Both the position numbers and the translations under genes were made by a program. Below are positions 14,091 through 53,390 of a stretch of 64,000 bases of DNA, one piece after another (the stretch's first letter is position 1; each line of letters begins with the position of its first letter). The stretch is taken from NCBI GenBank assembly GCA_012295275.1, contig CM022665.1, positions 21,576,001 through 21,640,000 of the forward strand, given 5' to 3'. The notes beneath the pieces are model-generated. The model made no database searches and was not told the origin of the DNA. It saw nothing but the letters and a program-made list of their open reading frames with translations. Origin of the DNA: Chrysomallon squamiferum (lineage: Eukaryota > Animalia > Mollusca).

Positions 14091-17000
14091 AATAATAATA
14101 ATAATAAGTGACCACATCATATAGCATCATATGCAATTTAATAAGTACGATCGTTTTGTGTACACAATAATTAGTAGTATGCCGTATTCATGTATAAAGT
14201 AGGATATCGGATCGTACCAAACGAAATTCATATTGTTGAAAATATCAATCGTTTAAGTATTTTATGCACACATGTATACAATAATACTAATATACACACA
14301 CAGCGAGAGACACACACAGACATATACGTATACACACACACAAAAGTCACACAAACGTCTATAGAATTATATCAAATTGTAAATCAATTATTCTTATTTT
14401 ATCATCGTAATGCTAACACTAAATCCAGACAGGTCGAAAAAAATACAACATATTTTTTCTTTCTTTGTTTTTGTCAGTTGTTTCTGTTTTGACGTTGACA
14501 TGGGCGTTACTAACATAAACATCCTGTGAAATGGCTGACATACCTCATCAGAATGAAATTTAAATGTATGATTGATTCTTTCCATGAAGAATGTTGATCA
14601 CGCCAAAACCGTGCGCAGATACAGGGGCGGGACGCAGTTAGCGCGGATAGACACACACACATACACACACTCACAGGCAGACAAACACGCACACGCACAC
14701 ACACTTACAAACATCCTACTTTATCCACCGAATTTATGAAATGTAATCAGGAAGAAGTATTAAGGTAATTAATTACTTCTTGTTTACATGTCGATACAAA
14801 TAATAAGCATTTGTTGACTTAGTTAATTACTTATCTACCGCAAACACTGAAGTCATCATTCAGTCACATAAACCTAATTTACAAAAAGAAAAAATTAGAT
14901 AGAAAAGGAAATAGGGTCGGAATCTCGAAGTCGGTTTTTGGAAAATTTAGCCAGTATCAGAACGAGTAACATCATCTCTTTTCAATACAACGTAAATTCA
15001 AATATCGTTAGGTTACAAGACAGCATCTTTGTTGATAGAAAGATAATAGCAGTTTAGTTTAATCCTAGTTCTAGCAATTAGATCTTTATGACTTACTATT
15101 TCAACTAGATTATATTTATTTTTATATATATATTGTTTGTTTTTGGGTTTTTTTTTTACTAAGACAAACTGCGATTTATCTTACTTTGAAACGGTTTAAT
15201 TAGCAGAAAATTGACGACTGCAAACACGCACGTATTAGAAAAATAATCTTAGAAAAAAATGTAAAACAAACTTAATAATACTTATTGTCGTCATCATCAT
15301 CATCATCATTAGTATTAGTATTAGTATTATTTACTGATTTGTTTTTGGATTTTTTTATTAACACATTTAATACCGTCAAATACTGCTTCCCTCGGTTCTC
15401 AGATGCTGGATTCGGCCCTACCACCACCATTGTGCGGGGAGTGTAAACCGTGTTTATCGATAACACGGCATATTAATAAAATATATTGTTACATACAGTG
15501 TGCGACTAGAACGTAACAAGGTGCTAATAAATCTTTCAATAAGCTCGACTTACGGCGTAAAATTAGTCTAAAGACAGTGACGTCACAGCAGTTGTTATGG
15601 TTACACCAACACAGAAAACGCGTTCCAATTTTAAAGCATGGGAGTGATTGTAACATTGTTAAACTATCGCTGATTCAAGTTGATGATACTTTAAATCATA
15701 ATCATCAACGTTGTTGTTGTTGTTGTTGTTGTTATTATTATTATTATTATTATCATCATCATCATTATTATACAGTAATATATAATGTTTGTCTGAATTT
15801 AAATTATTTTAAGAAGAAGTATTTTAAGTATCAACACTTTCAACACACTTTTGGTTTACTTTTATCTTACTTTATGTACTTTTAAGTCTAAGGACCAAAG
15901 ATAACGAAACAAGATACACGATAATATCATATTTTCGTTACTGTTAGTATATGTTTAATATGTATCTTTCGATATAAAGGAAGGCACATATTACAGCTTT
16001 TAATAAACCTAGCCTCAGCATGTTAATATTTCAGTAGAAATACCGAGAACGATCGACCCTGGGGTCAGTCACACCGCGCGTCATATCTCCATCATTAAAC
16101 AACAGTCTACATAGCTCCATTATTAAACAACAGTCTACATATCTCCATCATTAAACAACAGTCTACATAGCTCCATTATTAAACAACAGTCTACATATCG
16201 CCATCATTAAACAACAGTCTACATAGCTCCATTATTAAACAACAGTCTACATAGCTCCATTATTAAACAACAGTCTACATAGCTCCATTATTAAACAACA
16301 GTCTACATATCGCCATCATTAAACAACAGTCTACATATCGCCATCATTAAACAACAGTCTACATATCGCCATCATTAAACAACAGTCTACATAGCTCCAT
16401 TATTAAACAACAGTCTACATATCGCCATCATTAAACAACAGTCTACATATCGCCATCATTAAACAACAGTCTACATATCGCCATCATTAAACAACAGTCT
16501 ACATATCGCCATCATTAAACAACAGTCTACATATCGCCATCATTAAACAACAGTCTACATAGCTCCATTATTAAACAACAGACTACATATCGCCATCATT
16601 AAACAACAGTCTACATATCGCCATCATTAAACAACAGTCTACATAGCTCCATTATTAAACAACAGTCTACATATCGCCATCATTAAACAACAGTCTACAT
16701 ATCGCCATCATTAAACAACAGTCTACATAGCTCCATTATTAAACAACAGACTACATATCGCCATCATTAAACAACAGTCTACATATCTCCATCATTAAAC
16801 AACAGTCTTCATATCGCCATCATTAAACAACAGTCTACATAGCTCCATCATTAAACAACAGTCTACATAGCTCCATTATTAAACAACAGTCTACATAGCT
16901 CCATTATTAAACAACAAACTACACTGCTTACTTCATTATTCGTTAAAACTAATGAATTGTTTTTTGTTTTGTTTTTTTAAACACAAGAAGAAATTGTTGC

Positions 17001-44467: not shown

Positions 44468-45274
44468 TTACAGTTCCATAAAGATGTATTCTGCCAAATA
44501 AAAATATAAAAAAATTGGAAAGTGCAAACTGCAGATCCATAAATTTCTGAATTTATTAATTATATTCACTTGTTCAGATTTACAAGTTATCTGCATGTTC
44601 TTGTGTGTGCATGAAATTTAAAAAAAAACAAAGGAAAAAGTATACAGAAACTTCAACAGATGGAAAATAAAACCTTCAAATTTTACAAGAATCATTTAGT
44701 TTTTTTTTTTTTTTTTCAAATATTGTACAGAAAATATTTACAAGCTTTGCAATTCAAGAAATACCAACAAGAAAAATAAGTTGCTTTTTAAAAGTAATGG
44801 AATACTTTGTTTTGTTCAACATTTTCATAGACTAGCAAATAATAAAGAACAAAGGAAAATTTCATTCTGAATTTTTTTATTGGTTTTGAAAACGGTGGCT
44901 TTGGTGCAACAACTGACATTCGTATCACAGGCAAATCCTGGGAAATGGGTGAACAATTTTAAATTTTAATTTTAAATTTTTTTAAAACTAAGAACACAGC
45001 TGTACCCACACAAACTATTATAAAGTATGACAACAGGAAAAGAAAAACAAATTTTGTTGTCACACAAGGAACCGATATGCAAGCCCCAAAAAACAACTCG
45101 ATCATCTGATGATGAAAAACAATTCAACAAGAATCTTTGCAGCTGAATGCTGGCAATATCCAGTTAAAAAACTCTGTAAACAAGTTCCCAATTACATTTT
45201 TATAAAAAACAAAAGGGTTTGTTTTCAGTTGTGTCACATGATCTATGTACAAGTCTGAAATAAGTAATACTGAA

Positions 45275-45426
45275 CTATTTCCCTTGCAGTTTCTTCTCTT
45301 CAGCAATGACAGCTTCCACTCCTCTGCGCATCTCCTGCACTGCCTCGAACTCGGTCAGACCCAGACGGCGCTTGTTGGAAATATCATAAATTCCGCCTAC
45401 ACTTTCAGTGTGCTCTCCATGTATTC
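45275..45426 (-). CDS. AK: AK-A terminal exon 5 ([26 protein letters not shown]...EKKLQGK*)
   Basis: Not in the ORF track; translated by hand. Acceptor ccacccag|GA, TAG at 45277-45275. Confidence 0.95.
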
Positions 45427-46719
45427 CTGGGTGGAGGGAAAAAGGAAAATTAATTTTCCAGTTTTAAAAACTGCAACCCAGTACTAAATTTGTCATCCAA
45501 GATACTATCAAAGTTGTTAAAAAAAAAAAAAAAAAAAAATTCTTAAACTTGTAGGCAATTTGAAATATAATGTATCAGTATATTAATTGTTATACAGGCT
45601 GTTTGTAGACATTACATTTCAAGAATAATGCTCAGGACACTTAAATTTGAAGTTAAAAAGCTAAATCTGTTAATGGAATCAGAAATAAACTTGAAAAATG
45701 AACTTTAAAAATTTGCTAACTAATCTTATTTCTCCCTACTGTCTACAACTATCAGCAATTATCAAGTACTTTAGCTTGCTTGTTAAATTTTAAATTTATT
45801 TCAAACATTCTTCTGTTCATTGTCTTCCACTGGACAAAGTTTGAAGTAAACAACTTACCTCTAGCCTGAATGTTGAGTTTGTCACAGAATGCCTTGAAGT
45901 CTGGGGTTGCTGAGAGTTTGGGGATCTTGATGTGCACTGAGGCACGGAGTGTGGTTCCCAGGTTGCTGGGACAGAATGTCAGGTACCCAAGACCATCACG
46001 TTTTGCGAATCGTAGACCACTGTCTTGCAACTGGTTGACAGCCTGAATAATCAAAAGTAAAGAATATGTATATCAAATTTAATAACCAGGAGGTAAACAA
46101 TTACTTCCTTGTGTTACCTTTCTTACAACTGGCCATGAGGTACAAGAAATGTAAATTTCAGATTTTACCATTTTGCATTTATTTCATGAACTACTTGCAA
46201 TACAAAACTATTTTATGTCTAAATTACTTTTAATATAAATGACAGAAATTGAAAAGTTTATATATACTTCTGTATTTTTTGTACGTTTCTGTTGCTTCAA
46301 CTTTGTTATTCCTCCCCTTTTGCAACAGAATGAGATTACCAAACACAGATCCACATTCATCAAACAGCCTTTAAAAAAAGAAAACTTACGTTCACAAGCC
46401 TCGTGTACACCTCTCCAAGGTTACCTCCCTTCTGCATGGAGATGAATCGGAGGTGATCCTCCTCATTCACCCAGGTGAGGAACTTCTTGTCATCAGAGAA
46501 GTAGATTCCACGACCAATGGGCCAGTCATTGTAACCACCAGCCTCTCGCAAGAACCTGTCATGGTCGTTGAACAGGAAATGGTCATCTGTTAGCTGCTTC
46601 TGGGTTTCTGGGCTCATACCCTCAAGAGGGTAGTATTTTCCCTTCAGATCACCCTTCAGGGTACCAAGAGCTTTTACAGTTTCCTTTTCCATCGCGATGC
46701 GGTCCTGAAATTAAAAGAT

Positions 46720-46751
<32 letters not shown>

Positions 46752-48894
46752 GAATGTTTTGGTCAAAACATTCTAATAACAGTGTGTAGTTTTAAAATTT
46801 AATCATTCTGATGTCAGAATTTAAAAATATTAATCAGCTCCCTTTGGTATATTCCATTTTCAGTTTTATTTCCAATGGACAAATACATGAACAGATACTA
46901 AATAGTCAAGTACAATTCTGAATTCCAGTATGTCAGCAATACAATACCATTATAACTCAAATGTAAAAATATAAAATCTGATGCTTATGAATTTGAGCTT
47001 AGCTCAATTCATCAAATCAAATTTTCATGCAGTGAACAGCTTAAATATATATCAGTATTTACAGACTTGTGAAATGGACTTTCAAGACAATCATTTACAT
47101 TGTGTTGTAAAACTAATTTTAATACACATTTTAATTTAAAAAAAAAAAATTATATATTTTTATTATTACTGTTAATTTAAATGGAAATTTAACAAAATGA
47201 ATGTACATTTAAATTTTGTTATTTAAAAATCACCTCTTTGGTAAGAACAGGTGGAAAGCCATAGCTATCATGACTTCGGCCAATTCGGACGCGAGTCGAC
47301 ACGATCATCTCGCCAGATGGATCAAGGTCGCCAAAGCCCAGTTTGCTCACATCGCCGAAATCAGGTTTCGGGTGATTGAGTTTGTCAACCTTGTGGTAGT
47401 CCTTGATAACTTCATCAAGAACAAGCGCGAAGGTCGTGTACGCCTCGGGGTCACAGGCGTAGATTCCCACACCACTGTCCAGATTAATACATCCTGAAAA
47501 CAGGAATTAAAATTTAGAAGACTTACACCCATCTGCTTTTTCCCCCCTAAGATGCGCACGGTTCGATGCAAACTCAATATTAATTTGCGACTAAATTTAT
47601 AATTTCTTCCACATTTTGTCAGACGAAAGAAGCTGACACCTCCCCCACCTATTTGCCACGTGCACTGAACGATTCGTTATCTTGTCATTTACGGATGCCA
47701 CGTAAGATTAGCGACGCTGAGAGACGCCCGGCCGAGTACGAAAGAAAAAAATGTTTCTAAACAAAAATATTCGTTAAAAAAAAACATTCTGATCTATCAA
47801 TACTTTTGAAATACTGCCAGAAACACCTTTTTCCCATATGTGCTTTGACCTACAGAGAAAAAACCTTACCTGATCGAATGCAGTCGGCAAGCGTGCCGCC
47901 AAACTTAGTTTTCAAGCCTTTTAGTTTGTCGAACCTTTGCTGCGTTAAATGCTTTTTCAACAGGGATTTACAGTCGGTTGCAGTTTTCAGTTTATTCCAT
48001 AGTTCGTCTACAGACAGCTTGGATGGACCCTTGGACATTGTTATCACAGAAGGAAAAGAAAACGACCTGTATGACCAAAATACAACTAACGCTAGTGTAC
48101 ACTCCCTGTCTCTAGACAACCGGCGTTGCGAACTTCGACTGCTTTTATATTTCGTGACGTCAGCGGTAAGGCAACGGTCATCCAATGAAAATTTGATACA
48201 GGAACCGACGTGTCCAGTGACTGACGTGCCGGTTCACTGCTTTTTAATTTGAATATACGTATTAATAAAAATGATAGGAAGAAATAATGAAATGACAACG
48301 AACATGATTTGTTTATTGATTCGATTTCATCGATAAAAAAAAATATATATATATATACTTTTCTCTAAATACAAACATGACAATACATGTCTAATTTCTC
48401 ATGAATGCAAATTTATTCCGTTAAATTGTATACTTTACTTCAACTTTTCGAACGCAAGGTGCACAAAAAGTGCATAAACGTGCGAGTTGTTAATAATTAA
48501 TGACGTATTCAGTAGGCACTTAATGTCTCGCATGAAATGGCTATAATTTGGTTATTTTGTTTTACTAATGTTTCGACATTACTCACTCACTGCGCGTTTC
48601 CCGTAACACCCCTCCCACCCCCTTGCACACATACAGCCAGTGAAACATTTGTGTAAATTTTACTGAGGTGGTGTACAGCCATTTGTTTCTGGCTCGTTGA
48701 CCTTTAAACTTTGTCCCTAGATAGAGAAAATTAAACAGTGCTCCGAAGTCAAATATTTGTCTGCGTGGGGCAGTTTAACCGCAAACTAAATTTTCCCTTA
48801 CAGTTCCCCCCCCCAGGTCATCCTTTTTTTCTTTGCCGCTGTTTAACGAACACTACCCACCATGCTTTCTCCGTTCCATAAACAAAGCGGCTGG

Positions 48895-48938
<44 letters not shown>

Positions 48939-51900
48939 GTATGTTTGTCATTAACAGACTTGTTCAGAATAAAAATTGTCAGCGAAGTAAAATCAATTAA
49001 CTGCAAGTAAAGAGAACTATGCGCTCAACGATATACAGACATTTCGCCTTTTGTACAAAACTATACGCACCCAGTGAATGCTGACCCGGTATATAATCGT
49101 CCAGTGCTAAAATAAACTTTAGGGGGGGGCGAGAGTATGGGAGGGTATATAAAATATTCCCGTTACCAACCTGAACGAATGCAATCTTCGAGCCCTCCAT
49201 TAAATCTCGTTCTTTTATCTTTAAGGGCGTTGAATCTCTCCTCAGTTAGATGTTTTTTAAGTAACGAATGACATTCTGACGAAGAAGCATTTTTCAACTT
49301 GTCGTACAATTCCTGCACAGTCGAATTACCCCCACCCGCGTCCTTTTTCTGTTGACCATAGATGGCTCTGTACATGATCTGAAAATCTCGCAATATAGTC
49401 CCACGAATCGGCTGGGTGCGTGCAGGTTATGGTTGTGAGAGGTAAGGCAGTTTAACATTGTGGTTTCCATCAACAAACCTCCAGCTTGACAACCAATAAC
49501 CCAGTGACAATAGTCAACCGGAATAGCCGATTACTACAGTCAAAGGGAATTACCAGGCTTAAGCAAGCCAGACGACAGTTTTCAGTACGTGTAGATTTAG
49601 TATCTACTATCTAGTTGACGTCATTACAAGTTCAAATTCTTTGTTATCGTTATAATTATTAAAATAAACGTGCTCGAAAAGTAATTAGAAAAAAAATATA
49701 TAATAAAGTAGTCTTTGATTAAAGTTTAATTTTCACCCCTACAAAATCTCTAACATTTTAAAATGTAAAAGATTTCAAGATTTGTACGAATTGATTTACC
49801 GTGACCATAAAGTTATTATATTTCGTTACGCATCAACAATTTTTATTATTTCTGTGAAGTATGTGCATTCTACTTCATTTACTTTTACCTCTACCTCTAC
49901 TGAATAGAAAAATGAAATAAACTGAATTATCTGACTTTACAATGAAATTACAAGAAACCGTTTACAATTTGCACCTGGTACCGACCAGTGTCATTTACGC
50001 AATACGTAAAACCTATCGCCGACACTTTAGTTAGTTCAATTAATACTCCATTAATTATTGAAGTGCAGACAGTAGGTATGTCAATATACAACTCAAAATT
50101 TTGGCAGCTATTCAAAATCTGTTCCATACCAAGCTTACGACTTGCTTACGAATAAAAAATTGTCACAATAAATGTTTAGGCATTGTTTTGTATTGTATAG
50201 CAACATGTTGCTAATAGCGCATTACGAATCTGCAGTTTGAATGCGTGCGCGTGTATATGTAATCTATAATCATTCGATACATTGTTAAACTTGAACAATG
50301 AAATGCTACAGAATTCTCACTGTTGAACATTATTTATTCCCTAACAGACATTATCTGCTCCGTGTATGTCGAAATCGCAGTGGTTAAGCTATTAATTTGA
50401 TGCGTTACTTGCTTCTTATATAGTCACTGCTTGCTAGCGACCGTTATAAGATACTTAAGACTCTAACGCTTCTTGTAACGATACTTTGGGGAAGAAAACT
50501 CAATTTGTTATCAAGATACACGTTTGTATGTTCAAACAAGTAAGTCCGGACAAAAATCACAGGAACTCGGGGCGTGTTAGAAAGCCATCTTTTCACGACA
50601 AAGTTTCCATCATTTTTATCATTAGTATCATAACTACCATTACTGTTATCCGTTTATCAAACTCATGTGTATTAAGCTAAACAATTTTTTTTTTTAGAAG
50701 TGGAAAAAAAATCGATTCAATCGACTCCAGTTATTGAAAAACGTGTTGATACAAAGTATGCACTGTTATATCGTATATCAGTTATAAGGGGGACATTTAT
50801 CTCAAACTTGAAGTATTTTCAAGGATGTATGGTATATCAATATCAGCTTGGTACTTATCCGCCTTACGATCAGTTTAACGATGTGAGAACGTGGATTATC
50901 GGTACGGGCAGGATTAACGTTTAGACGTGCTAATCACTAATCAGGCTTTTCAGATTAGGATTGATACAATCCGTTTTTCAGATTCCTTCAACAATCTCGA
51001 AAAATTCTCATTAAAAACTGAATTCACCTTCGTCTAAAAAACAAAAAATAATAATGGTCTGAACTTCCAAGTATTATTAATTTTGGTAAATGGGCAATGA
51101 CAACACGAGTTGTAGCTGCAAATGTAAAAACTGAAAATCCATTTCTATCAGTTGGGGAAGGGGAAGGGCCGAAAACAAAAGAAACATTAAAAATAACTAC
51201 GATCCTAAATTGTTTACATGTACAATTTTATGTATCTTATTATTTTTTTTTTTTTTTTAAATAAAAATAAATGATCTTGGTGAATACAAACAGATCACGG
51301 AAATGAGTGAAGCTATACAGAGGACGAACCGGACACTGCTGTTTAAAATGCACAACATCCTAGAGTTGTACATTGGGTCGTGCATTATTACGTCAGGCGT
51401 GTCGAAATGACCTTTCTGTCATCAACTATCAGTCGGCGAGCGGGAAATAAAATGTTACCTAGAATCGATTTTCTTACGTTTTCACCCGTGTGGACGCCAC
51501 GATCTCATTCTGTCCCAAAAAGAAGCCAATATATAAAGGGCATTGTTAAACTGTAGTACAGTTATAAAACAAAACATGCTATTCAAAAATAAAACACGTG
51601 TCGTTTCCTTGCAAGCTTATATATCGATTTAAATTACTGTCGCAATTTCTGATGCATCGCCGACTATGAAACCGTTCGTTTATCGAACAATTTCCACTCG
51701 ATACATGAACCGCTTTATTTATAAAATAAATCCTTCACATTAAACATACAGTTGTTTAACCTGTACCGAGAAGAACTGATCCAGGAAACTCGTCAAAAAC
51801 CCAGCTAAGTACCTACCGACCTTATTCGTTGTACATTTAGCAAACAATACGGCTGTAGTTAATGCTTACATTTAGTAGTCGTGCTATTTGGTTTTATGAA

Positions 51901-52344
51901 ATGGTACTATGGTGGATTGGCTCTAATGGTAATATTTGTGTGGGTAATGGTGATTGAAATGATTTATAATTATGGCGATATGATCGAGATCTCCCCGATA
52001 TAAAGCTTGGAGAATGTATTTATGGGCTTGAAAACGAGGCCGTTTTGATGTCCCGTTACACTACCCGCCGGCGAAATGAAAATAACTAAAAAGACGTTCA
52101 AATGATGCCATTCGTATGCCATACTAAGATTGGTTCCTTTCCAAACAAGAACTGTCTAGCTTTTTTAAAAAGCAAAGTACCATTTCTTAGCATTTGACAC
52201 AAAGTCAAGATTAAAAATAGAATCGTTACAGTAAAACGGAATGTTTATAATTTTTTTTTCTTTTTTTTTCTTTTTAAATCAATGAATGAAATACAGAATA
52301 GTCCCCTTCGACCGACTTAAATTTAATAAAAATTAAAATGCGTG

Positions 52345-52388
<44 letters not shown>

Positions 52389-53093
52389 TGTTATTGGCTT
52401 ACCAAGAGATGTTCGTTATAACGAACATCTCTTTTCGGACATTGGTATTTAAAAACGGGCCGATTTCATTGATTTAACGACAGTCAGTCGAGTGATGTTT
52501 CTCAAGTCCATGTTTACCGATGGTTGGGTTTTGAGTCGAAAGAATTTAGGGCACCTCACGGTGATCGAAGATGTGCGCCGGCTGCTAGTAGTGCGCGCGC
52601 TGTCTATATACGGATCGAAGTCGCGTCTAGCTGCAAATGCCAATTATTTTATCTGGAGTGTATCCAACAACGAAAAGAAAATGTCAAAACTTCGGATAGA
52701 TTACGTTATCAGCATTTGTTTCTATTAGTTTTATTAACAGAATCTAGGTTCCATACAGTTAACATTTGTTGCATCATAATGAACAACAACGAATGATGTG
52801 ACGAAACACTTTAAAAACACTACACTATCGCTAAATCTCTTCATTCATTCGTATAGTCTGGTACGTTATTATACTGAACAAAAAAAAGAAATCGTTTCTG
52901 TTCATTGACGGTTCTGTAAACGTTCCAAATACACAAATAAAAACACTGCAGGTTAATTCATAAAATAAACATAAAATATAAACATTGACGATAAAAGTAG
53001 GTGGTGAGGAGAAAGCTTCAGGGTGCCAGAAACAAAACAAAACAAAAAAATGTATATATATTTTGTCAATTATTATTTTTTTATTATTTTTTA

Positions 53094-53127
<34 letters not shown>

Positions 53128-53292
53128 TTTACCTGACTGAATGCAGTCCGCCAAGGTGCCGCCAAATTTGGTCTTCAGTTCCTTGAGAGCATCGAATCGT
53201 TCCTTCGTCAGATGTTTCTTCAACAAAGATTTACAATCCGCACTCGCTGTGAGTTTAGCAAATAATTCATCGGCAGGCAATTTCGTACACAT
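45275..53292 (-). CDS. AK: Arginine kinase gene AK-A (ATP:guanido phosphotransferase), full span: three alternative first coding exons plus constant exons 2-5
   Basis: Exons join in frame through GT-AG introns (phases 1,0,0,1). Motifs: [76 protein letters not shown]. The short guanidino-specificity loop with Asp/Tyr and the KDYH tyrosine fit arginine specificity. Constant part is 911 nt including the stop. Confidence 0.96.
45859..46042 (-). CDS. AK: AK-A constant exon 4 (AVNQLQ...TFCPSNLGT...NIQAR)
   Basis: Acceptor ttattcag|GCT, 184 nt, donor AG|GTAAGT; contains the active-site Cys motif. Confidence 0.96.
46390..46704 (-). CDS. AK: AK-A constant exon 3 (DRIAMEKE...NEEDH...YTRLVN)
   Basis: Acceptor tttcag|GAC, 315 nt, donor AAC|GTAAGT. 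Confidence 0.96.
47234..47493 (-). CDS. AK: AK-A constant exon 2 ([16 protein letters not shown]...PPVLTKE)
   Basis: Acceptor ttttcag|GA, 260 nt, donor GAG|GTGATT. Confidence 0.96.
47870..48038 (-). CDS. AK: AK-A alternative first coding exon 1c ([14 protein letters not shown]...[10 protein letters not shown]), 359-aa isoform
   Basis: ATG at 48038 (acaATG); 169 nt = 56 codons + 1; donor TCAG|GTAAGG; 376-nt intron to exon 2. Confidence 0.93.
48140..48230 (-). promoter_or_regulatory. Putative core promoter of exon 1c: TATA, CRE and CCAAT
   Basis: TATAAAAGC (TATAAAA at 48149-48143), TGACGTCA at 48155-48162, CCAAT at 48182-48186, further TGACGT near 48223. Confidence 0.7.
49171..49375 (-). CDS. 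AK: AK-A alternative first coding exon 1b ([16 protein letters not shown]...GGLEDCIRS), 371-aa isoform
   Basis: ATG at 49375 (track start 49393 is TTG); 205 nt = 68 codons + 1; donor TCAG|GTTGGT; preceded by acceptor-like TTTTCAG|ATC-ATG. Confidence 0.85.
49490..49625 (-). promoter_or_regulatory. Possible regulatory region upstream of exon 1b
   Basis: TGACGTCA at 49616-49623, CCAAT at 49493-49497; no clear TATA box. Confidence 0.35.
52403..52645 (-). promoter_or_regulatory. Candidate extra promoter and non-coding leader exon for the 1b isoform
   Basis: CpG-rich patch, TATATAG near 52610, CCAAT near 52641, donor TTG|GTAAGC at 52403/52402; only short uORFs. Confidence 0.35.
53133..53292 (-). 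CDS. AK: AK-A alternative first coding exon 1a ([14 protein letters not shown]...[10 protein letters not shown]), 356-aa isoform
   Basis: ATG at 53292 (gccATG); 160 nt = 53 codons + 1; donor TCAG|GTAAAA, phase 1, matches exon 2. Confidence 0.9.
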
Positions 53293-53344
53293 GGCTACTG
53301 CAGGCGGAGAATCACACTTGTACTACTACACAACCCGTTCGGTG

Positions 53345-53390
53345 GATGTGACAACTACAGCTCGCGCACTGCACGCTTTTATAGACGTTG
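53345..53390 (-). promoter_or_regulatory. Putative core promoter of exon 1a
   Basis: TATAAAAGC on the minus strand (TATAAAA at 53383-53377), about 90 nt upstream of the ATG, in a CpG-containing patch. Confidence 0.6.

Follow-up and report, generated by a model that had tools for sequence, protein, structure and literature searches.

The 64 kb window analyzed here, i.e. the whole stretch of 64,000 nucleotides from contig CM022665.1 of Chrysomallon squamiferum, contains a phosphagen kinase gene with three alternative first coding exons (1a, 1b and 1c) placed in front of a single set of shared exons 2-5. The whole locus lies on the minus strand, in AT-rich, microsatellite-rich surroundings with a GC content of 27-37% per 2 kb. 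An earlier note on this DNA had described three intact copies of exon 1 before one exon 2-5 set, and its coordinates and open frames are borne out by our analysis. The three-start layout is real and transcribed, which we consider practically certain.

The locus and the encoded enzyme

Exon 1a (53292-53133; 160 nt, 53 codons plus one base) has its ATG at position 53292 and its donor at 53133, and the encoded protein starts with Met-Cys. Exon 1b (49375-49171; 205 nt, 68 codons plus one base) begins with a Met-Tyr leader, and exon 1c (48038-47870; 169 nt, 56 codons plus one base) encodes the most basic of the three N-terminal parts, hereafter called heads. The stretch of about 55 amino acids previously ascribed to every exon 1 describes 1a and 1c, but not 1b with its longer leader. 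All three exons finish in TCAG/GT, in phase 1. They are mutually homologous tandem 5' coding exons (tblastn E-values from 1e-14 to 1e-22, same Pfam segment), and comparison of the DNA flanking the three exon-1 regions revealed only two short low-complexity matches in common.

Shared exon 2 (47493-47234) encodes the remainder of the N-terminal domain and the guanidino-specificity motif DSGVGIY, exon 3 (46704-46390) the motifs DRFL and NEEDH, and exon 4 (46042-45859) the motif CPSNLGT; exon 5 (45426-45275) ends at the stop codon, and RNA reaches at least position 44894. Each of exons 2-5 has an AG acceptor, and exons 2, 3 and 4 have GT donors. The frames obtained by joining 1a, 1b or 1c to exons 2-5 are free of internal stops and encode proteins of 356, 371 and 359 amino acids, respectively.

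Judging by its domains, fold and motifs, the gene is an arginine kinase, a member of the phosphagen kinase family that stores the energy of ATP as phosphoarginine. The N-terminal (PF02807) and C-terminal (PF00217) domains were found by Pfam in the window exons and in 92%-identical proteins of Gigantopelta aegis. Of the 67 positions of PF02807, each exon 1 covers 1-36 and exon 2 covers 40-67. The motifs DSGVGIY, DRFL, NEEDH, CPSNLGT and GEHTES all lie within the shared exons and none of them in exon 1, the arginine kinase-type specificity and catalytic residues being complete in the shared body. We take the residues known as Asp62 and Tyr68 to belong to DSGVGIY, and Arg193 to DRFL. These three are named as key arginine kinase residues in the available portion of PMC11492440.

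The AlphaFold2 model of G. aegis isoform X1, the orthologue of the 1b form, was built on a 30-sequence alignment (predicted local distance difference test score, pLDDT, 87; predicted template modelling score, pTM, 0.85), and its fold agrees with solved arginine kinases (template modelling score, TM, 0.83-0.88). The model helices 21-30, 39-43, 46-52 and 63-72 lie in or across exon 1, and residues 1-16 have pLDDT below 50. Exon 1 is predicted to encode about half of the N-terminal domain; behind a leader predicted to be unstructured come helices 1-3 and the first part of helix 4. Since Pfam positions 1-36 and the modelled helices sit in exon 1, a part of the folded domain is swapped and not the leader only, in agreement with the earlier proposal. 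The net charges of the 1a, 1b and 1c heads are +3, +4 and +8, and the computed isoelectric points are 6.8, 7.2 and 8.5, respectively. In 18 of the 49 head columns, SLLK and G.L.DCIRS among them, at least 27 of the 30 aligned sequences agree across the head classes.

Splice junctions and age of the first exons

The RNA data comprise assembled contigs from four public runs (X1-X4); a fifth run, X5, is of uncertain kind and DNA-like. The three introns of the body are joined in all three of the runs X1, X2 and X3, and exon 2 has splice joints in each of these. The 672-nt contig from X1 carries exon 3, exon 2 (positions 345-609 of the record) and then exon 1a (positions 606-672), and a loose end in X4 is the exact 24-nt junction of 1a and exon 2, different from the 1b junction, the 1c junction and the genomic donor. 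The joint of 1b to exon 2 was observed in two of the three runs (X2 and X3), and that of 1c in one of three (X2), both with CT..AC ends and 25 letters on the short side. Hence, across the four RNA runs the 1a junction is supported by two (X1, X4), the 1b junction by two and the 1c junction by one, and the predicted junctions 53133>47493, 49171>47493 and 47870>47493 are all correct. No joint linking two first exons is listed among the RNA contig joints of X1-X4; the first exons are spliced one at a time onto the common downstream exons. As all three are joined to the same exon 2 in RNA, the claim that one gene makes three proteins holds.

The 1a contigs match the genome collinearly up to 53412 (X2) and 53364 (X3), the X2 one carrying 26 extra letters past the exon end, and for the 1b contigs collinearity extends to 49641-49643. 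The contigs from X1 and X2 are identical to the shared coding exons, and those from X3 differ at two coding sites. In X2, contig depths of 77, 7.67 and 58.9 sum close to the body depth of 150.7, which provides no basis for ranking the isoforms. Exon 1c is uncovered in X1 and X3, and the exons are uncovered in X5; such gaps carry no weight. In one contig from X3, positions 44976 and 47095 are connected by a non-canonical joint whose ends are TT..AT and whose short side has 21 letters; a repeat artefact is the probable cause.

The proportion of synonymous differences (pS) among 1a, 1b and 1c is 0.88-0.95, i.e. saturated, and that of nonsynonymous differences (pN) is 0.16-0.25, with 35-46 codons compared. 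As synonymous sites are saturated and amino acids conserved, the copies are old and under selection, and the idea of neutral relics is not supported by this comparison. The case of a single used junction with neutrally evolving other exons, which the earlier note had allowed for, fails against three junctions and a pN far below pS.

The shared body is identical to that of G. aegis XP_041355018 at 278 of 302 residues. RefSeq isoforms X1 and X2 of this species (XP_041355017/018) have one body with 1b- and 1a-type heads, respectively, and these heads are direct orthologues of the ones in the window: 1a is identical to the X2 head at 45 of 53 residues, and 1b to the X1 head at 47 of 69 residues. 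Exon-1 trees built on some 50 columns place 1a beside G. aegis X2 and 1b beside X1 (supports 99/80 and 98/98), so the copies are older than the divergence from G. aegis. Topology tests, from which Elysia marginata was left out, rejected a species-specific triplication, with the three exons of the window as one clade (approximately unbiased test, p-AU 0.003). A neomphalid-only triplication, with these exons and the two G. aegis heads as one clade, is not rejected (p-AU 0.23), and the tests decide neither for nor against a grouping of 1c with a heterobranch and caenogastropod class (p-AU 0.42). One tree separates the Met-Tyr class from the rest by a weakly supported branch (18/88); the other tree divides it into two groups at a polytomy. 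A single older origin of the exon classes is possible, judging by the sequences compared.

Promoters, leaders and alternative explanations

The reading that we favor, and consider likely, is one gene in which three diverged copies of exon 1, each probably with its own promoter, are joined to four shared exons, the resulting enzymes having a common active site and probably differing in time, place and cell location. Under this reading, exon 1 would have been duplicated together with its promoter and donor, and whichever copy starts the transcript would be spliced to exon 2. The three proteins would share the active site, functional differences being carried by the leader and the surface charge, and the Met-Tyr leader of 1b would be the likeliest targeting signal, by analogy with Drosophila ArgK1. 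The main effect is quite probably on expression and location rather than on substrate; modest kinetic or stability differences between the isoforms are possible and compatible with this explanation.

A separate promoter for each exon 1 is probable in our opinion. The TATA-like box TATAAAAGC occurs twice in the window, and both occurrences precede first exons: one at 53383-53375, 91 nt upstream of the 1a ATG, and another at 48149-48141, 111 nt upstream of the 1c ATG (both on the minus strand), which marks a putative promoter of 1a and 1c, respectively. The earlier note had mentioned this box at 1a and 1c; its presence and position are confirmed, but its count is at chance level (2 vs 1.46 expected), the placement alone being informative. 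The palindrome TGACGTCA, which we take to be the consensus of the cAMP response element (CRE), is found at 48162-48155, 5 nt upstream of the box of the putative 1c promoter, and at 49616-49623, 241 nt upstream of the 1b ATG; these, like the TATA-like boxes, are motif matches only, with a putative regulatory function. It occurs five times in the window vs 0.76 expected, and none of 100 shuffles reached five.

The leaders differ in nature. The start Met-Tyr-x(2-3)-Tyr is found in 21 of 164 single-domain-length proteins (a redundant set), from gastropods and bivalves, and in Mytilus the Met-Tyr leader is simply added to a head that is identical in all other respects. Bivalve single- and two-domain arginine kinases carry a Met-Tyr-x-x-Tyr leader as in the 1b class, with the domain segment grouping elsewhere. 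Isoform 1a starts with Met-Cys-Thr-Lys (53292-53281, minus strand), which is kept in G. aegis; the same start was found in only one of the single-domain-length proteins compared. This start could be a site of acetylation, lipid attachment or oxidation. An oxygen degron is unlikely here, as in human data Thr after Cys is favored by NatA and depleted among Cys/Arg-degron substrates (according to the available portions of PMC11199558 and PMC12377780). In front of its own version of the exon-1 domain segment, the longer octopus isoform has a basic, hydrophobic leader of 48 residues that, by eye, looks like a mitochondrial transit peptide.

A number of observations weigh against the favored reading. 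There is no TATAAAA box at 1b, the 1a contig of X2 extends 29 nt past the 1a TATA-like box, an acceptor-like AG stands directly upstream of the 1a, 1b and 1c ATGs, and the RNA contigs do not fix the 5' end of 1c. The depth of the 1b contigs (5.8-9.6) is similar to that of intronic contigs (3.1-9.6), so the 5' extension of 1b may be an unspliced 1a transcript. All RNA runs come from one study, and, since contigs cannot reveal start sites, promoter choice is only inferred. The G. aegis 1b leader has a hydrophobic moment of 0.04, compared to 0.25-0.76 in other Met-Tyr leaders, and its second Tyr is displaced by one residue, which makes the targeting idea weaker for this lineage. Among the database proteins no 1c-type isoform of G. 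aegis was found, and the trees neither establish nor refute a deep orthology of these classes of exons.

Some of these observations would suit a gene with one promoter and one shared non-coding leader exon, followed by 1a, 1b and 1c as mutually exclusive second exons chosen by splicing: each ATG has an AG and a pyrimidine-rich run 2-30 nt upstream, the contigs do not define where the 1c RNA begins, and the X2 contig reaches past the 1a box. But in X2 and X3 collinear 1a contigs extend 66-114 nt beyond the AG without a loose 5' end, the 1b contigs continue about 260 nt past theirs, and TATA-like boxes precede the 1a and 1c ATGs by 91 and 111 nt; we therefore regard such splicing choice as improbable. 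Much further down the scale is an artefact or relic, that is, three complete genes collapsed in the assembly, or one live exon with two decaying copies. No single sequence record spans the locus, the DNA-like run X5 has no exon coverage, 5-6 body residues vary between Littorina records that share a locus tag, and in Lottia two limpet head types occur on separate bodies (86% identical), so that whole-gene duplicates do exist in the group. Nevertheless, the common exon 2 in RNA, the body contigs of X1 and X2 matching without variant letters (with two differing sites in X3), the open frames with pN far below pS, and the orthologous heads of G. aegis leave this explanation hardly any probability. 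In particular, heads saturated at synonymous sites cannot derive from three near-identical collapsed genes, and with the shared exon 2 in RNA the case of a collapsed assembly, raised in the earlier note, largely fails.

The third alternative concerns the reason for three copies. Substrate specificity in UGT1A is determined by the variable exon. By analogy, the swapped helices could pack on the specificity loop and alter substrate, kinetics, stability or oligomer state, yielding distinct isoenzymes. Consistent with this, the variable exon encodes a part of a folded domain and not a leader alone, 5-13 substitutions separate the copies within the last 35 residues, and exon 1 ends five residues before the equivalent of Asp62, whose bond with Arg193 affects activity (according to the available portion of PMC11492440). 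On the other hand, the columns conserved across the head classes speak against divergent functions of this kind, and exon 1 contains no substrate or catalytic motifs, all of these being encoded by exons 2-5. A UGT1A-like change of specificity, implied by the earlier note, is therefore unlikely, and so is this explanation as a whole; the favored reading, with its emphasis on expression and location, places the active site in the shared exons.

Distribution in molluscs and relation to known systems

The mollusc isoform sets of RefSeq and GenBank are automatic annotations and were compared with the window as proteins only. The sample consisted of the best 120 matches of each search and of 30 clusters, so that the absence of an isoform is not demonstrated; 146 of 315 proteins could be split at the exon boundary, the other 169 being long, short or unsplit. 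Among the 146 split proteins, ten groups combine bodies at least 97% identical with divergent heads. A set of 22 pairs, each from a single species, was picked by hand: in 11 of them the 290-residue bodies are 100% identical behind divergent heads, two (Littorina) have bodies 98% identical, and nine are separate genes at 63-93%. An identical body with different heads was found in ten species, namely G. aegis, Patella caerulea, Batillaria, Babylonia, Aplysia, Biomphalaria, Bradybaena, Arion, Octopus vulgaris and O. bimaculoides. Examples of identical bodies with divergent homologous heads are the isoforms of Aplysia californica (XP_005099406, XP_035825917/918) and Biomphalaria glabrata (XP_055887810/811/812), with three heads each, as well as those of Patella caerulea (KAK6169253/254), Babylonia areolata (XP_076444653/654) and Octopus vulgaris (CAI9720215/216); in all these sets and in G. 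aegis, body identity begins at the same Gly. The shared breakpoint and the isoform and locus names suggest the same exon layout in these molluscs.

The gene model of Elysia marginata has two tandem exon-1 copies, of the Met-Tyr type and then with a 1c-like ending, in the same order as 1b and 1c. Heterobranchs have three head classes, each a supported clade, one of which extends to caenogastropods (99/96). The Haliotis X1 and X2 isoforms have the same head, and in the tested pairs from Lottia, Candidula, Mytilus, Mizuhopecten and Liolophura the bodies differ. Both limpet head types stand on one body in Patella caerulea, whereas in Lottia they are found on the separate bodies mentioned above; this contrast may represent a switch between exon duplication and whole-gene duplication. 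Overall, the layout appears to be old, widespread and not peculiar to the Chrysomallon genome.

A more far-reaching possibility, to be taken as tentative, is that the three-start gene is ancestral to gastropods and perhaps shared with cephalopods, providing a compartmented phosphagen shuttle from one gene: the 1b Met-Tyr head would direct the enzyme to mitochondria or membranes, and the other two heads would belong to tissue-specific cytosolic forms. If so, the exon classes have been kept over a very long time, on the order of hundreds of millions of years. In vertebrates, the phosphagen shuttle is formed by separate genes for cytosolic and mitochondrial creatine kinases, and in flies by leader exons of one gene, while for gastropods and the octopus the data suggest a third solution, in which the exon of the first folded helices is duplicated together with its upstream region.

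Reportedly, Ellington, Yamashita and Suzuki described in 2004 the alpha and beta chains of annelid glycocyamine kinase as products of one gene with alternative N-terminal exons. This is a dimeric enzyme of the creatine kinase type that forms heterodimers, the variable part being a short N-terminal piece. In alignments with the query, the matched ranges of the PDB chains 3l2e_A (374 amino acids) and 3l2d_A (390 amino acids) are shifted by exactly 16 residues against each other, which is just consistent with an N-terminal difference. In Drosophila ArgK1, a 16-residue first-exon peptide is sufficient for mitochondrial targeting (available portions of PMC13215054 and PMC13585230). As in the window, one arginine kinase gene there has several 5' exons and a common catalytic part, but its variable exons precede one last catalytic exon and, as far as the same portions go, are not duplicates of folded N-terminal helices.

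The locus also resembles the class of tandem exon duplications, including UGT1A and clustered protocadherins, in which duplicated 5' coding exons are joined to constant 3' exons. Among the 236 human events counted by Martinez Gomez et al. (2021, available portion of PMC8373072), 39 are N-terminal substitutions derived from such duplications, and most are ancient. The duplicated 5' exons of that class have alternative promoters according to the same text, whereas the promoters in the window are putative. The window has three short exons (53-68 codons), compared to 9-21 large ones in clusters of the UGT1A and protocadherin type. In clustered protocadherins, the promoter choice is stochastic, cell by cell, among many variable exons, in contrast to three here. 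No account of duplicated first exons in molluscan arginine kinase was found in the literature searched, including the available portions of PMC11492440, PMC5427814, PMC11761897 and PMC6429109; most subscription papers on molluscan arginine kinases (e.g. of Biomphalaria or Semisulcospira) were outside this scope and may describe the layout. The isoforms are present in the RefSeq annotations of several molluscs and the layout is apparently undescribed in print, the general class of events being already catalogued.

The gene provides a natural experiment, with three enzymes having one active site and different N-terminal helices. The Met-Tyr leader offers a specific peptide for the question of organelle targeting, in a system accessible in Aplysia or Biomphalaria, and a single arginine kinase cDNA from a snail or octopus, those of the Oct f 2 allergen group among them, may stand for only one isoform out of two or three.

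The tblastn search of the whole window with the seven exons yielded exactly four exon-1-like, two exon-2-like and two exon-3-like pieces. The fourth exon-1 homologue (36559-36406, minus strand), absent from the earlier note, is exon 1 of a neighboring two-domain kinase gene; its role as a fourth alternative exon was rejected, since it clusters with two-domain mollusc kinases (support 100/99). The second exon-2-like (5205-4937) and exon-3-like (3155-3007) pieces, both on the minus strand, are a part of the same gene. This tandem two-domain arginine kinase gene, downstream of the three-start gene, is the orthologue of G. aegis XP_041355015, named 'taurocyamine kinase-like' in the database. Its first intron is about 31 kb long, and a further intron, absent from the single-domain gene, follows the DR motif. 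The copies of TGACGTCA are located at positions 15578, 25180, 32286, 48155 and 49616, three of them inside this long first intron. As exon 1 of the two-domain gene has the same phase-1 donor, read-through splicing between both genes is possible in principle.

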